Source of the DNA: a virus
Lineage: Duplodnaviria > Heunggongvirae > Uroviricota > Caudoviricetes
DNA: 10,026 nucleotides
Direction: 5' to 3' (one strand)
Virus record (IMG/VR): IMGVR_UViG_2706794694_000003
Part shown: one piece after another, positions 4,211 through 8,188 of the stretch
How the letters are laid out: every line of letters starts with the position of its first letter
Position numbering within the stretch: position 1 is the stretch's first letter
Made by a program: the position numbers and the translations under genes
Notes under the pieces: generated by a model
Told to the model about the DNA's origin: nothing
What the model saw: only the letters and a program-made list of their open reading frames with translations
Databases searched by the model: none

Positions 4211-4465
4211 CTACTTAATGCACTGAGTGCGGATATACTCCTGTGCCCCTTCCAGTTGCATCTGCATCGTCATCAGCCGCTCTCTGAGGGTGAAATAATC
4301 CCGTTCAGCGGTGTCTGCCAGTCGGGGGCTGGTTGCATTATCCACGCCGGAGGCGGTGGTGGCTTCACGCACTGACTGACAGACTGCTTTGATGTGCAAC
4401 CGACGACGACCAGCGGCAACATCAGCGCGCAGAGTTTCATTTTCAGCTTTCGCATCAGCTAACTC
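4211..4465 (-). CDS. Rz: Rz-like i-spanin, C-terminal part (5' end lost in the N gap)
   Basis: The frame is open from the gap edge to TAG at 4211-4213. Translation ...ENETLRADVAAGRRRLHIKAVCQSVREATTASGVDNATSPRLADTAERDYFTLRERLMTMQMQLEGAQEYIRTQCIK closely matches the lambda Rz C-terminus as I recall it. Confidence 0.8.
   Translation of the reverse strand, partial: ELADAKAENETLRADVAAGRRRLHIKAVCQSVREATTASGVDNATSPRLADTAERDYFTLRERLMTMQMQLEGAQEYIRTQCIK
4273..4455 (-). CDS. Rz1: Rz1-like o-spanin lipoprotein, embedded in Rz in another frame
   Basis: ATG at 4455; MRKLKMKLCALMLPLVVVGCTSKQ... has a signal peptide with a lipobox Cys and a proline-rich mature region. Entirely nested within the Rz reading frame, the classic Rz/Rz1 arrangement. 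Confidence 0.75.
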   Translation of the reverse strand: MRKLKMKLCALMLPLVVVGCTSKQSVSQCVKPPPPPAWIMQPAPDWQTPLNGIISPSESG

Positions 4466-4715
4466 NNNNNNNNNNNNNNNNNNNNNNNNNNNNNNNNNNN
4501 NNNNNNNNNNNNNNNNNNNNNNNNNNNNNNNNNNNNNNNNNNNNNNNNNNNNNNNNNNNNNNNNNNNNNNNNNNNNNNNNNNNNNNNNNNNNNNNNNNNN
4601 NNNNNNNNNNNNNNNNNNNNNNNNNNNNNNNNNNNNNNNNNNNNNNNNNNNNNNNNNNNNNNNNNNNNNNNNNNNNNNNNNNNNNNNNNNNNNNNNNNNN
4701 NNNNNNNNNNNNNNN
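4466..4715. other. Assembly gap (250 N)
   Basis: Uninterrupted run of N from 4466 to 4715. Confidence 0.95.
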
Positions 4716-5001
4716 CCGGTATATCGACTTTGATGTACGGGTTAATTTGTCTGGCGACAGTGGCAAGGTCTTTATTCAGGAGGGCTTTGCATTCTGCTTC
4801 GGTATACGTTTTACCGAGCATGATGTCTTTTCCGGTGTGTCCGTGACATACAGTCCATACACCAATGATATCTTTGTATGGTATGTAGCTGACACCTTCC
4901 AGACCATCGTTACCACCTGGGCCAGTGATTAACACAGATGCTATAGCAACAGCCCCACCACCAATAGCAGCTGCAACAGCCTTGCGTAATGATGGCGACA
5001 T
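4716..5001 (-). CDS. R: SAR-type endolysin (phage lysozyme), N-terminal 95 codons; 3' end lost in the gap
   Basis: ATG 5001-4999 with GAGGTG RBS. The Gly/Ala-rich N-terminal segment ([27 protein letters not shown]) is a signal-anchor-release domain, followed by lysozyme-like sequence ([22 protein letters not shown]...). Resembles the phage 21 endolysin as I recall it. Confidence 0.85.
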
Positions 5002-5283: not shown

Positions 5284-5896
5284 GAATCACCTTTACCAAT
5301 ATTGTATGAAAAAACACGCACGACTAATTGACAATAATTTTCATTTCCATTAAAAAAGATCGCGTAGCATTCTTAATTCATGAGGAACTTTACCCGCCAG
5401 CAATCTGAGTAGCGAAAGCTGTTCATCCCCAATGTTTTTGCTGGCGGGTCCTTTTTTCTACGGTCCTCCTCCCCGGAGGGGGGCATTTCATTATTTTTCT
5501 AATCGTTACTGGTGAGAAGGCGGAAGAAAAAGCCAGTTCTTCGCCCCTAAATAACAGCATGATTCCAGTCCATGCAAAATCTGATTTCCAGCTCACACAT
5601 ACCGAGCGCTGTACAAAAAACCGCCAGCCAAGGCAGTTAAGAGTGTGTTCCCGGGGTTTGCTTAGAATATTTTGTAAGTTGTCCGAAGAGATATTTACAA
5701 CACCAGAATGATGAATCATCAGTCCCCTGCCAGAGGTTCACTACGTAACCTGACCGACAATGCACCATTCTGGTGCTGAAAAAAGAGCACTGGAACTGCA
5801 ACAAAACAACATCACAGAACAGGAGATGGTAAGGAGTCAGACATTCCCACACAATATTGTGTCAGTGCAAATAACAACCTTCGTCTCAAATCTCGC

Positions 5897-5971
<75 letters not shown>

Positions 5972-5974
5972 ATA

Positions 5975-6050
<76 letters not shown>

Positions 6051-6052
6051 GC

Positions 6053-6129
6053 TGGCCCACCACCGAGGACTCGAACCTCGCACCGTCAACTTAGAAGGTT
6101 GATGCTCTATCCGGATGAGCTAGTGGTGG
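6053..6129 (-). tRNA. tRNA-Arg (anticodon UCU), unusual C1:G72 acceptor start
   Basis: Reverse complement CCACCACTAGCTCATCCGGATAGAGCATCAACCTTCTAAGTTGACGGTGCGAGGTTCGAGTCCTCGGTGGTGGGCCA. Cloverleaf folds with a perfect 7-bp acceptor stem, anticodon loop CTTCTAA, encoded CCA. Confidence 0.75.
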
Positions 6130-6130
6130 T

Positions 6131-6207
6131 TGGTGGCCCTTGCTGGACTTGAACCAGCGACCTGGCGATTATGAGTCGCTCGCTCTGACCAACTGAGCTA
6201 AAGGGCC
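6131..6207 (-). tRNA. tRNA with CAU anticodon, most like tRNA-Ile2 (lysidine type, reads AUA); tRNA-Met cannot be excluded from sequence alone
   Basis: Reverse complement GGCCCTTTAGCTCAGTTGGTCAGAGCGAGCGACTCATAATCGCCAGGTCGCTGGTTCAAGTCCAGCAAGGGCCACCA. Closely resembles host ileX-type tRNA as I recall it. Anticodon loop CTCATAA. Confidence 0.8.
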
Positions 6208-6216
6208 GGAGGCAGA

Positions 6217-6245
6217 ATAATAACCATATGTCATCACATCTGCAA
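6217..6245 (-). promoter_or_regulatory. Putative sigma70 promoter for the tRNA cluster
   Basis: Minus strand TTGCAG (6245-6240), 17-nt spacer, TATTAT (6222-6217), about 9 nt before the first tRNA 5' end. Confidence 0.4.
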
Positions 6246-6293
6246 ACTCATCTGACCACCAGCACGTTTAACGTCCTGTGCCGTTTTTCAGGT

Positions 6294-6320
6294 ATAAAAA
6301 AACCCGCTCATCGGCGGGTT
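6294..6320 (-). terminator. Intrinsic terminator downstream of the ORF6N-domain gene
   Basis: Minus strand AAACCCGC-cgatga-GCGGGTTT followed by TTTTTTAT, about 75 nt after the stop at 6397. Confidence 0.6.
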
Positions 6321-6396
6321 TAAGCTGTGTGGCGTAGTAACCACTCTTAACAGGATATTCAACTTTTTACGATCGTAAAGTTTTCGGAAAAAATTT

Positions 6397-6960
6397 TTAA
6401 AACCGCATCAACCGCTCCACCAGTTGCTCTTTACGGGCAACGATCCACCCGTGTTGCTCCAGATAAAATTTAAACCGTTCCAGAGTACATACCATCGCAT
6501 CGGCGGGTACCTTTTCCGTGAACTCAACCTGACCGTGTTTATCGAAGTGGCTCAGTAATGCGCATCCATCATTTTCGATAGATGTGTTTTGTGCCGCTGG
6601 TGGCTGTTTCTGGTTGAAATAACAGTCTTCCAGTTTTTCGAACACTTCCCACGCCTGATCGGTTTCGAGCATTTTGGCGTGACGGGCTGCGCCACGTTCT
6701 GTCCAGAGGATGAGGGAGCGAACGTTACGGGCAATTTTCACAGAAACTCTTAAAGAGTTTTCGTTCTTCAACTCTCGTAACGCATCACCTTCTATCAGGA
6801 AAAAATGTTTACCTTCTATAAACCGTTCTTTGTTTCGATTGAAATTGTTTGTCAAACGCTGGCGCTCTGTTCCGTACAAATCAGCCAGCAGCTCTGTTGT
6901 CATGACAGGAAGATGGTTATGCGTAAGTGACGGGAGTTTTTCAATAGACGTGCGATTCAT
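6397..6960 (-). CDS. ORF6N-domain (KilA-N/Bro-N-like DNA-binding) protein with a C-terminal domain of unknown function
   Basis: Chosen start ATG 6960-6958 (MNRTSIEK...), 7 nt after AAAGGA; an ATG two codons upstream at 6966 is an alternative. N-terminal region LPVMTTELLADLYGTERQRLTNNFNRNKERFIEGKHFFLIEGDALREL...WTERGAARHAKMLETDQAWEVF matches the ORF6N pattern as I recall it. The track's 253-aa version begins at GTG and adds a Trp/Cys/Phe-rich stretch overlapping the promoter, which I discount. Confidence 0.7.
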   Translation of the reverse strand: MNRTSIEKLPSLTHNHLPVMTTELLADLYGTERQRLTNNFNRNKERFIEGKHFFLIEGDALRELKNENSLRVSVKIARNVRSLILWTERGAARHAKMLETDQAWEVFEKLEDCYFNQKQPPAAQNTSIENDGCALLSHFDKHGQVEFTEKVPADAMVCTLERFKFYLEQHGWIVARKEQLVERLMRF

Positions 6961-7166
6961 AGACATGTCCTTTCGAATATTTTGATTTACCCCTTTTGAG
7001 AGGGTGACCGGGCGCTCAAAACCGTCGAAAGTCGGCGGGCGTATTTCCATTGCTGGTATTGTATTAGCCGCACACCCGGTCATAAACCAAGAATTCTGGA
7101 CACAAAAAAACCACATGGCTATCGGGTGTGGATACCGCTTTCGAGGTGTTTTGAGCACCGCGGGGA

Positions 7167-7195
7167 AATGTAAACTGCAAACCTGAAACTGTCAA
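7167..7195 (-). promoter_or_regulatory. Near-consensus sigma70 promoter facing the ORF6N-domain gene
   Basis: Minus strand TTGACA (7195-7190), 17-nt spacer, TACATT (7172-7167). The roughly 200-nt leader contains a short hairpin plus T7 run (about 7101-7131). Confidence 0.4.
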
Positions 7196-7320
7196 CACCG
7201 TCAGGTTCCAATCATCGGGTGGTGAGACGCACAGGGTTGGAACTACCGGGAAACCGACCGGCGAGCTTTTCAGCTCCCCCATGCGCCCCACCATAATTCA
7301 GATGTGCGCGTGCATACGAC

Positions 7321-7345
7321 AATAAAAAACACGCTCGCGGCGTGT
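7321..7345 (-). terminator. tR'-like intrinsic terminator ending a short late leader transcript
   Basis: Minus strand ACACGC-cgcga-GCGTGT followed by TTTTTTATT, about 55-80 nt downstream of the predicted pR' start. Confidence 0.55.
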
Positions 7346-7406
7346 GTCTGTCGCGGTCTCTATCCGGGGTTCCAATCCCGACGCCAGATTTTGCTGGCGC
7401 GTGAGG

Positions 7407-7436
7407 AATATAGCCCCGGACAATGTGTCTGGTCAA
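7407..7436 (-). promoter_or_regulatory. pR'-like late promoter immediately downstream of Q
   Basis: Minus strand TTGACC (7436-7431), 18-nt spacer, TATATT (7412-7407), 5 bp past the Q stop codon. The predicted 5' leader forms a CGCCAG-caaaat-CTGGCG hairpin (7382-7399). Confidence 0.5.
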
Positions 7437-7440
7437 GCAC

Positions 7441-7827
7441 CTACATAATTCGTTCTACGTATCTGTCCATCTCCAGCCGGATATCAAGCATCATCAACAT
7501 GCCATCAATAACCCCTTCCGCTTTCTGCAGGCGCTTGCCAATACAGGTATCCGAACACCCATGTTTCCGTGCCAGACTCATAAAAGTCATTCCACCTACG
7601 TAATAATCCACCAGCAAATCGTGCAAATCCTGATTTTTCTTGTTCAACCGGGCCATACAGCCACAAATTATCATTGCATCATCATCAGAACACTGAGGGC
7701 GTGATTTCACTTTCGACGGAATTAACCCTTTAAAACCAGCAGCGATCGACGCCCAGGATACATCTTCATGAGTGTTTGCAGCCCAAGCCCCCCACCGTTC
7801 CATAACCTGCTGAATATCACGCGCCAT
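7441..7827 (-). CDS. Late-gene antitermination protein Q (Stx-phage Q933-like type)
   Basis: Chosen start ATG 7827 ([25 protein letters not shown]...) with AGGTGA RBS; the track's upstream ATG at 7848 adds 7 codons. Cys clusters (CGCMARL, HGCSDTC) suggest zinc binding. Resembles the Q of Stx2 phages as I recall it. Overlaps the rusA stop. Confidence 0.8.
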
Positions 7828-8188
7828 CGTTATCACCTGTGATTTCATAAATCTTCACGCCCAGTCGCCCACCAGGAACGAGCTGACCGCGCACAATATT
7901 GATTTCATCAAACTGCTCGTCGTCTATGAGTAGTCCGGCATGCGTCAGCGCATCCAGTGGTGCTTTCAGGATATTGTCCAGGTCACGACGGCGCTTATCC
8001 GGTGGCTCTGCAATAATCTTTATCGCCAGCCTTCCGGACAGGTTTAATTTCAGCCGCTGCTGGCGAACAATTAGCGTCACATCACGGCGATAACGCTCAC
8101 CAACTTTTGATACAAAATATGTGCTGCCACGACGTCGCCAGTAAGTATTCACCGTCGGCGGATAAGGTAAAATAAACTCATGGCGCAT
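7817..8188 (-). CDS. rusA: RusA-family Holliday junction resolvase
   Basis: 123 aa; [15 protein letters not shown]... and [29 protein letters not shown] match the RusA catalytic region (compare DRRRRDLDNLQKAAFDAL in E. coli RusA as I recall it). ATG start, in the nin-region position before Q. Confidence 0.85.

Follow-up and report, generated by a model that had tools for sequence, protein, structure and literature searches.

A probable RNA-gated antirepressor cassette on the sRNA-Xcc1 fold, lying between Q and the late promoter of a lambdoid prophage

The sequence of IMG/VR record IMGVR_UViG_2706794694_000003 (Caudoviricetes), a stretch of 10,026 nucleotides (nt) that we call the window, contains on its minus strand an sRNA-Xcc1 element followed by a gene for an ORF6N-domain protein of 187 amino acids (aa). 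We regard it as probable that promoter, leader and gene together form an RNA-gated cassette for an AnrP-like antirepressor, in which an antisense module of the immunity type is built on the sRNA-Xcc1 fold; our confidence is higher for what the element is than for the direction in which it regulates. The two variable parts of Xcc1, the loop of its hairpin 2 and its 3′ single strand, are complementary to GCUCAAAAC and UCGAAAGCGG on the upstream side and to CUCAAAAG and UCGAAAGGA on the downstream side, all on the same strand, and the second of the two UCGAAAG copies overlaps the Shine-Dalgarno (SD) site of the ORF6N gene. At the level of the sequence, this complementarity, its covariation, the position at the SD site, the conservation of promoter and U-run and the kind of gene that follows are shown. 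A preliminary description of the region had seen here an autonomous moron inserted into the late operon; several of its observations hold, and its placement of the cassette and its view of the function do not. Feature coordinates are collected in Table 1.

sRNA-Xcc1, its flanking targets and the leader

In the window the Xcc1 loop CUUUCGA stands between two UCGAAAG sites; in Escherichia coli EC12 the loop is CUACUGA and both sites read UCAGUAG, and ahead of antB in Nil2 the loop CUACUUG is accompanied on both sides by CAAGUAG, that is, loop, upstream site and downstream site covary in these three enterobacterial alleles. RNAduplex over-predicts pairing on long segments and served as a pointer only. 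Viral contigs were scanned for the invariant core of Xcc1, which returned 120 loci, nearly all of them Xcc1-like, and 15 of 17 sampled loci reached the Rfam gathering score. Because loop lengths and registers vary between loci, word-based tests with cross-locus controls were used instead of column-based pair counts. In 45 of 71 unique viral loci both flanks carry a 7-mer that is complementary to Xcc1 in its variable part, compared with 162 of 4970 mismatched cross-locus pairs (3.3%), and 27 distinct complementary words are represented among the viral loci. The same test in bacterial genomes was positive for 40 of 94 loci among the matches listed, versus 1.7% of cross-locus pairs, and at least 27 specificities of the recognition elements have been seen. 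In 28 of 42 diverse loci, 8-11 nt separate the end of the downstream target from the start codon, and most of the remainder are mis-called starts. The internal loop AAUACAAnACC and a small GNRA-like hairpin (7040-7066 in the window) are invariant in all Xcc1 loci, partly by construction since this core was the search pattern, and the hairpin-2 loop and 3′ single strand vary along with their targets.

The genes that follow Xcc1 were counted over 89 unique complete downstream proteins: AntA/AntB accounts for 17, Rha for 16, a protein of 83-87 aa and of unknown function for 14, ORF6N and Bro-N for 9 each, P22_AR_N for 7 and KilA-N for 5. All of these families except the 83-87-aa group belong to the “Bro network” of antirepressor-like proteins (PMC10111431). 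The 83-87-aa protein, which has no Pfam match, is preceded by Xcc1 in a metagenomic subfamily (L007, L012, L019, L022, L042, L056, L057, L073, L090, L092, L099, L102, L106) in which no word is common to both flanks. Five Pseudomonas loci (L210, L211, L233, L254, L323) have an apparent short open reading frame (ORF; ATGCCT...) after the SD-overlapping target, and their first long ORF, Bro-N-like by eye, starts further downstream; in this they are reminiscent of leader ORFs such as icd and orf45 and of translational coupling. L046, L111 and L263 each contain a pair of Xcc1 copies a few hundred bases apart at most, and five consecutive copies are reported for Xylella fastidiosa (PMC12189769).

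The near-consensus promoter seen in the preliminary description is present and is among just four such sites in 5800-7900; the leader measures about 200 nt from the predicted start to the ATG at 6960 and contains the hairpin and T7 run that had been described. In 59 of 109 non-identical sRNA-Xcc1 loci a site of at least 9/12 has its -10 hexamer ending 10-29 nt before the first RNA target, and 60 of the 75 promoter-like hits within 260 nt upstream fall into that 20-nt interval. Nil2 carries the same promoter-leader unit ahead of antB, in its nin region and behind unrelated upstream sequence, with TTGACA-18-TATATT at equal distance between unrelated flanks, and its depositors annotated a promoter there. 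Matches to some stretch of the 1.2-kb region occur in 1349 of 5426 complete E. coli genomes. This Xcc1 leader subtype is present in 163, and 148 of these 163 are homologous to the leader from the predicted start site onwards. No LexA box was found by eye at the cassette promoter.

The 5′ part of the leader holds the first target set and then a terminator-like hairpin with a run of seven U. This layout recurs across distant loci, which supports the earlier suggestion that hairpin and U-run are regulatory, and a T run of at least five lies between target set 1 and Xcc1 in 51 of 71 viral loci. No Rfam family matches 7160-7104 at E ≤1. The loop of the hairpin (ACCCGAUAGC; window 7104-7131) is conserved across distant loci, for example L006, L005, L040 and L094, and a plain terminator would not need such a loop. 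An anti-terminator/terminator switch (GCGG/CCGC/GCGG) was considered for the hairpin and U7 and dropped, as its first pairing is lost in the window and in several subfamilies; pairing to the 5′ stem of hairpin 2 in Xcc1 accounts better for the conserved GCGG.

The promoter-leader-gene unit is portable, as had been proposed, given its occurrence before antB in Nil2 and in a minority of loci with a related Q. Among 74 evaluable loci of this Q family, 9 are of the window type with the Xcc1 cassette, 28 have ORF6N without Xcc1 and 37 have neither, and the gene is in this respect no universal core gene. All 37 loci with a Q that is 85-100% identical to that of the window and with an examinable downstream flank do carry the ORF6N gene. 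In E. coli O157:H7 Z1813 (L206, 1937-3761) an isrK-C4-Xcc1-ORF6N composite follows a DUF1133 gene and precedes tRNA-Met, so the module also occurs behind a gene other than this Q.

Alignment with E. coli Z1323, in which the ORF6N start codon directly follows C4 as it does in Gifsy-1, reveals about 235 extra bases in the window and EC12, consisting of promoter, hairpins, Xcc1 and a new SD. Just past the b2-like target of C4 (7213-7205) the window ceases to be homologous to Z1323 and Gifsy-1, and it lacks the a2 target, SD and start codon that a Gifsy-type anrP has. The replacement also took the first ~75 codons of the ORF6N gene, since relatives without the cassette are 59-68% identical to the window in the N-domain and 82-97% in the C-domain. 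The -35 hexamer of the cassette promoter lies on this junction, where GGTGGTGATA of Z1323 and Gifsy-1, conserved in C4-type modules, has become GGTGTTGACA through two substitutions. With the a2 target, SD and start of an IsrK/C4 module displaced by the Xcc1 cassette, two antisense-RNA modules stand here in tandem.

The IsrK/C4 module, the late promoter unit and the ORF6N protein

The window is a lambdoid prophage, and the closest protein cluster, at 99% identity, comes from Shigella sonnei. On the minus strand a DnaB-like helicase (9974-8442), RusA (8188-7817), Q (7827-7441), the ORF6N gene (6960-6397) and four tRNAs (6207-5897) follow one another, and genes for holin, lysozyme, HNH endonuclease, terminase and portal lie beyond the tRNAs. 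Masked bases (N) occupy about 4470-4720 within lysozyme/Rz-like genes, where the ORFs 4459-5001 and 4455-4766 translate to long runs of X. A promoter-like TTTGCA-18-TATTAT (9/12; 6217-6246, minus strand) is located just ahead of the tRNA array; for prophage Sp5, a primary start site located between tR′ and stx2AB has been reported, from which the phage tRNAs seem to be transcribed (PMC7547250).

Table 1. Features of the window from Q to the late promoter unit, in the order of transcription.
Feature	Position	Strand	Sequence, score or remark
Late antiterminator Q gene, upstream neighbour	7441..7827	-	PF06530 Phage_antitermQ, E 2e-52
PisrK promoter-like site	7407..7436	-	TTGACC-18-TATATT, 10/12
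c4-a1b1	7413-7361	-	Rfam RF03163, 50.1 bits vs gathering 46.7; overlaps IsrK
IsrK sRNA	7324..7400	-	Rfam RF01394, 77.5 bits vs gathering 50
b1 target of C4	7377-7369	-	GAUUGGAAC; within IsrK
IsrK terminator	7345-7329	-	inside IsrK match; formerly taken for tR′
C4-type antisense RNA, equivalent of Gifsy-1 STnc1160	7215..7298	-	Rfam RF01695, 71 bits vs gathering 45; alignable with Gifsy-1 C4
Gifsy-1 orf45 homologue	7064..7294	-	76 codons; AUGs at 7294 and 7282
b′ element of C4	7243-7236	-	GUUCCAAC
b2-like target of C4	7205..7213	-	GAUUGGAAC; kept
Cassette promoter, sigma-70-like	7167..7195	-	TTGACA-17-TACATT, 10/12; predicted start near 7160
Short 5′ leader RNA with target set 1 (predicted)	7104..7160	-	layout recurs in distant loci
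Leader hairpin	7159-7145	-	GGUGCUCAAAACACC; S-target GCUCAAAAC at 7156-7148
L2-target	7144-7135	-	UCGAAAGCGG
Terminator-like hairpin	7131-7111	-	CCACACCCGAUAGCCAUGUGG; then U7 7110-7104
sRNA-Xcc1 antisense RNA, 84 nt	6998..7081	-	Rfam RF02221, 77.4 bits vs gathering 53; model positions 1-87 of 87
Xcc1 hairpin-2 loop, recognition element	7031-7025	-	CUUUCGA
Xcc1 3′ single strand, recognition element	7021-7014	-	UUUUGAGC (UUUUGAG)
Target set 2 (span)	6968..7000	-	overlaps SD AAGGA, 7 nt before ATG
Target set 2, first	7000-6993	-	CUCAAAAG
Target set 2, second	6976-6968	-	UCGAAAGGA; contains SD AAGGA
ORF6N-domain protein, 187 aa, AnrP-like antirepressor by homology	6397..6960	-	ATG 6960, stop 6397; PF10543, AnrP and PHROG homology
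Stx-phage late promoter unit homologue	6294..6379	-	~85% identical to sequence directly after Q in VT2-Sakai and 30 viral loci
pR′ hexamers	6379-6374 and 6357-6352	-	TTTACG, 16-nt spacer, TATCCT; start homologous to A6345
First terminator of the pR′ unit	6321-6300	-	then T run

An Rfam scan of the minus strand gave c4-a1b1, isrK, C4 and sRNA-Xcc1 in series, each above its gathering score. The first three make up the Gifsy-1 isrK locus, and hence the terminator at 7345-7329, on which the cassette had been placed between tR′ and the tRNAs, is the IsrK terminator and not tR′. The same PisrK promoter precedes isrK in Gifsy-1 and, within the nin region, in Nil2, L173 and L195; as these last three have isrK/C4 ahead of Q, in the nin region, PisrK belongs to the module and not to Q. 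In L173 (933-1131, 5750-6024) and L195 (1045-1232), whose Q is 83% identical, isrK/C4 lies ~2.4 kb upstream of Q, and phages of this type have STnc100 and AgvB sRNA matches ~2 kb downstream of Q. A transcript from 7400 would put the two AUGs of the orf45 homologue at nt 107 and 119-121, the positions of the two orf45 start codons mutated in the Gifsy-1 study (PMC4825925). The homologue is 76 codons long in the window, 44 in EC12 and 45 in Gifsy-1, so its extra length in the window is not conserved; there it traverses the cassette promoter and stops inside Xcc1. Without the a2 target, SD and start that it controls in Gifsy-1, the C4 of the window may be an orphan RNA or act in trans.

The 97 bases past the ORF6N stop (6390-6294) align at ~85% identity with what comes immediately behind Q in phages that have a related Q. 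In a survey of 80 viral loci whose Q protein is 81-100% identical, this pR′ unit is present in 77: it lies 48 nt after Q in 30 loci with nothing between (the ORF6N gene being absent), ~500 nt in 5, 775-882 nt in 31 with isrK/C4/ORF6N between (checked for the L132 type), 1054 nt in 7 of the window type with the Xcc1 cassette, and 1560-3006 nt in 4. That the unit occurs 48 nt behind Q in 30 loci without the gene assigns the terminator at 6321-6300 to it; the strong terminator credited earlier to the cassette is thus present, but as a part of the pR′ unit, and the cassette, having borrowed it, has none of its own. Since pR′ lies downstream of the ORF6N stop, the ORF6N module is situated between Q and pR′, outside the late operon into which it had been thought to be inserted, and judged by this position it is not Q-dependent late cargo. 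The VT2-Sakai unit has TTTACG-16-TATCAT, and its predicted start is 258 nt before the end of the second terminator; the PR′-tR′ distance by primary-transcript and 3′-end mapping is 258 nt (PMC7547250). The Sakai coordinates agree given a uniform 142-base offset between record versions, which assumes that base 1 of the VT2-Sakai phage record is where prophage Sp5 begins. The identification of PisrK with the late promoter, implied in PMC7547250, was rejected, given the position of the module in the nin region in L173, L195 and Nil2 and the different unit that follows Q in 77 of 80 loci. In annotation, a terminator should not be taken for tR′ simply on the ground that it comes first behind a Q of this family.

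By homology, the ORF6N protein is an antirepressor and a member of the “Bro network” of phage regulators. PF10543 (ORF6N) covers residues 13-97 (E 9e-21; 74.4 bits versus a cut-off of 27.8), the whole length is homologous to Gifsy-1 AnrP (STM2616, 187 aa) with 49% identity (E 6e-58), and PHROG 2379, labelled “anti-repressor”, matches with E 4e-85. In the AlphaFold2 model the N-domain (residues ~11-115) is confident (pLDDT 76-91), the linker (residues 116-131) is disordered, and the C-domain (~133-187) is small, with two strands and two helices at pLDDT ~60. The C-terminal part was not recognised in the preliminary description; its ~65-90 residues have no Pfam match even at E ≤10, the C-domain has no NCBIfam match and no match in the Protein Data Bank (PDB) by sequence below E 0.79, and the Foldseek check of the model against the PDB found nothing below E 0.58. 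The C-domain is rare (an exhaustive HMMER search through 1.8 billion representatives yielded 11 clusters, and a word-indexed search yielded 15 proteins, most of them short or partial) and occurs fused to Rha and to Ash+AntA N-domains too. As the C-domain goes with the phage backbone (82-100% identity) and the N-domain is exchanged, we infer that the former is the partner-specific part, possibly the one that binds the repressor. In Nil2 (L003, 2920-3060) a ~30-nt tandem repeat (GGGTTACTTTAAGTAACTCACAAAATTTGC) lies in the linker of the ORF6N-type antA and corresponds to a variable-length insert in the protein alignment (P0058, P0036).

Four observations support a start at ATG 6960 and not far upstream. 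RefSeq annotates the identical start in EC12, where the in-frame extension upstream is closed by a stop codon; structured RNA fills the stretch upstream of the ATG in the Rfam scan; and the ATG sits 9 nt past the target/SD, the commonest spacing in the family. With this start sound, the cassette promoter lies outside the ORF6N reading frame, in agreement with the preliminary description, though it does fall inside the 76-codon orf45 homologue.

Proposed control and competing explanations

The sigma-70-type promoter would start a transcript near 7160, whose first ~55 nt would carry GCUCAAAAC and UCGAAAGCGG followed by the hairpin and U7, and read-through would yield the 84-nt Xcc1 RNA. This RNA, probably cut from a precursor, would pair with target set 2 and so keep the antirepressor untranslated in the lysogen. 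The short terminated 5′ RNA would present decoy targets and could titrate Xcc1 and free translation, as an activator like IsrK. Once made, the antirepressor would inactivate the prophage repressor and start induction, like AnrP in Gifsy-1. Given the position between Q and pR′, transcription would come from the cassette's own promoter, PisrK and early-operon read-through, and not from Q-modified polymerase.

A number of points weigh against this account. All regulatory steps proposed for this locus are drawn by analogy from P1 C4/immI and Gifsy-1 IsrK/C4. No 7-mer is shared by both flanks in 26 of 71 viral loci, and the subfamily with the 83-87-aa protein, which has none at all, does not fit the model as it stands. 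The Xcc1 element (7081-6998) does not match the C4 model (RF01695) at E ≤1 and belongs to no Rfam clan, so that “C4-like” refers here to logic and not to family membership; a similarity of its 3′ tail CACCC to the CACCACCC tail of C4 is no more than a lead. The -35 hexamer originated at a recombination junction, the terminator hairpin of the leader is weak in the window (-10.7 kcal/mol, z-score +0.67), and the pR′ hexamers score just 8/12 and did not come up in the promoter scan. The minimum-energy fold of the whole leader pairs its 5′ part with the 3′ half of Xcc1, so the antisense elements may be self-sequestered in cis; this fold resembles the translationally inactive “structure A” of Gifsy-1 (PMC4825925). 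Gifsy-1 has no internal promoter (PMC4825925 Table 1A), and published accounts treat sRNA-Xcc1 as a trans-acting sRNA tied to virulence or vesicles.

In one rival explanation the site at 7195-7167 is non-functional, transcription comes from PisrK and early read-through only, and the Xcc1 region is a cis-folding leader. In keeping with it, removal of PisrK abolishes anrP transcription in Gifsy-1 (3 versus 280 Miller units; PMC4825925 Table 1A), the -35 hexamer lies on the junction, and long-range cis pairing dominates the whole-leader fold. We nevertheless consider this unlikely, given that Gifsy-1 is without an Xcc1 cassette, so that its result has no bearing here, that promoter-like sites stand at the same distance in 59 of 109 diverse loci with unrelated flanks, and that 148 of 163 E. 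coli genomes show leader homology from the predicted start onwards. Mainly trans action of sRNA-Xcc1 on host mRNAs, with the nearness to the ORF6N gene incidental, has been published for Xanthomonas and proposed for Xylella (PMC12189769; bioRxiv 10.1101/2025.06.18.660453), and phage sRNAs of the IsrK and StxS types have host targets (PMC7547250). Such targets may exist for Xcc1, yet they cannot account for variable elements that track both flanks locus by locus through at least 27 alleles, with the downstream target on the SD site and downstream genes that are overwhelmingly of antirepressor families; we give hardly any credence to trans action as the main role.

The moron of the preliminary description would have its own promoter, attenuator and terminator and express in the lysogen a protein for lysogenic conversion or anti-phage defence. 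The promoter-like site is indeed present at a conserved position, the gene occurs in just 37 of 74 loci with a related Q, and PADLOC gives weak matches of the ORF6N domain to the candidate defence system PDC-S05 (E 1e-7, N-domain only), which on present evidence reflect a shared domain and no more. However, full-length homology to the experimentally supported antirepressor AnrP (PMC4825925) and to the anti-repressor PHROG points to a phage induction regulator, and the covarying antisense target over the SD site argues for silence in the lysogen; Gifsy-1 lysogens likewise express the RNAs and not the protein (PMC4825925 Table 1A; PMC7067206). The terminator is part of the pR′ unit, the gene is found in all 37 examinable loci with a Q 85-100% identical to that of the window, and the cassette is fused behind an IsrK/C4 module in place of the latter's a2, SD and start, all of which leaves an autonomous moron with little chance of being correct. 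It is also improbable that the protein is another DNA-binding regulator of the Bro network, or a host toxin whose toxicity is contained by RNA control. ORF6N and KilA-N are DNA-binding modules in proteins of many functions, the C-terminal domain matches no known fold, the PHROG label is an annotation and not a test, and a passing mention in one paper puts sRNA-Xcc1 upstream of the toxin gene symE in Xanthomonas integron cassettes. Against these stand the 49% full-length identity to AnrP, which raises antQ operon transcription and induces Gifsy-1, and the combination of a backbone-following C-domain (82-100%) with a swapped N-domain (59-68%), which is the pattern of a partner-specific domain. 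An RNA-gated, AnrP-like antirepressor cassette is the explanation that we hold to be probable.

Relation to known systems and significance

The order in Gifsy-1 is Q (STM2617), isrK, C4 (STnc1160 equivalent), AnrP (STM2616), isrJ and tRNA-Arg. The isrK promoter drives anrP transcription, the mRNA is untranslated unless short IsrK is supplied, and AnrP both increases antQ operon transcription and brings about prophage induction (Hershko-Shalev et al. 2016, PMC4825925). The window is alike in the order after Q and before the tRNA(s), in isrK and C4 matches above the Rfam thresholds, in the orf45 AUG positions and in a protein of 187 aa. It differs by the sRNA-Xcc1 cassette, which is absent from Gifsy-1 and replaces the a2 target, SD and ATG of C4. 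In Gifsy-1 the orf45 stop overlaps the anrP start (ATGA) in translational coupling, whereas the homologue in the window ends at 7064, 104 nt before ATG 6960. Downstream of anrP, Gifsy-1 has isrJ (100 bits); the window has no match to isrJ (RF01393) at E ≤1 and carries the Stx-phage-type pR′ unit in that place.

The immI operon of P1 and P7 was reportedly worked out by Citron and Schuster in 1990. It consists of the c4 antisense RNA, a1/b1 and a2/b2 targets, icd and ant (bioRxiv 10.1101/2020.03.17.996009). Both there and in the window a structured antisense RNA comes from the same transcript as its target and has two recognition elements, a target pair lies on each side with the downstream one on the ribosome-binding site before an antirepressor gene, and specificity alleles differ between phages. 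Unlike c4, the RNA of the window belongs to RF02221, a different Rfam family from C4, no icd-like leader ORF lies between target and antirepressor gene, and target set 1 has its own terminator, which would give a separate short RNA and is more IsrK-like. P4 immunity works through CI RNA with seqA/seqC and premature transcription termination (PMC4825925, PMC10111431). It shares with the window a processed RNA repressor (in the window, a predicted one) between complementary sites on one transcript and a terminator that separates the first site from this RNA. The C4 model of Rfam recognises CI but not the Xcc1 RNA of the window, whose conserved feature is the SD overlap.

The Stx-phage PR′-tR′ unit that produces StxS (Sy et al. 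2020, PMC7547250) is matched in the window by the promoter and the first hairpins. In VT2-Sakai it begins 48 nt past Q and tR′ is reached after 258 nt, whereas that of the window starts 1054 nt after Q and keeps only the first ~50 nt and first terminator before the tRNA array. The gene, the IsrK/C4 module and the pR′ unit are of known kinds, and Xcc1 as a phage immunity RNA would be a new structural variant.

The Rfam family sRNA-Xcc1 is said to go back to an integron sRNA of Xanthomonas campestris (Chen et al. 2011). Its position upstream of an ORF6N gene in APSE phages is mentioned in passing in one paper. In the searchable literature, with subscription journals outside it, we found no flanking covarying targets, SD occlusion or antirepressor link for sRNA-Xcc1, nor any account of it as an immunity RNA of phages. 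On balance we lean towards the view that sRNA-Xcc1 is not primarily a trans-acting virulence sRNA and forms a second widespread structural class of immunity RNAs of phages and mobile elements, an analogue of C4/CI with a fixed scaffold, two reprogrammable elements, a decoy copy of the targets in a short terminated 5′ RNA and an SD-occluding copy ahead of a Bro-network antirepressor, stacked here behind IsrK/C4. The integron copies possibly stand ahead of SymE in the same role.

If this is true, induction via this antirepressor could need two independent RNA locks to be opened. The antirepressor of this locus, which antisense RNA would keep silent, is probably able to trigger induction without classical repressor cleavage. 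The two reprogrammable variable elements make the module a candidate orthogonal translational switch. sRNA-Xcc1, which is annotated in many proteobacterial genomes and phages, would gain a checkable role, with predicted targets for each copy on its own flanks, and the large number of specificity alleles is suggestive of immunity or cross-talk between phages, as with P1/P7.

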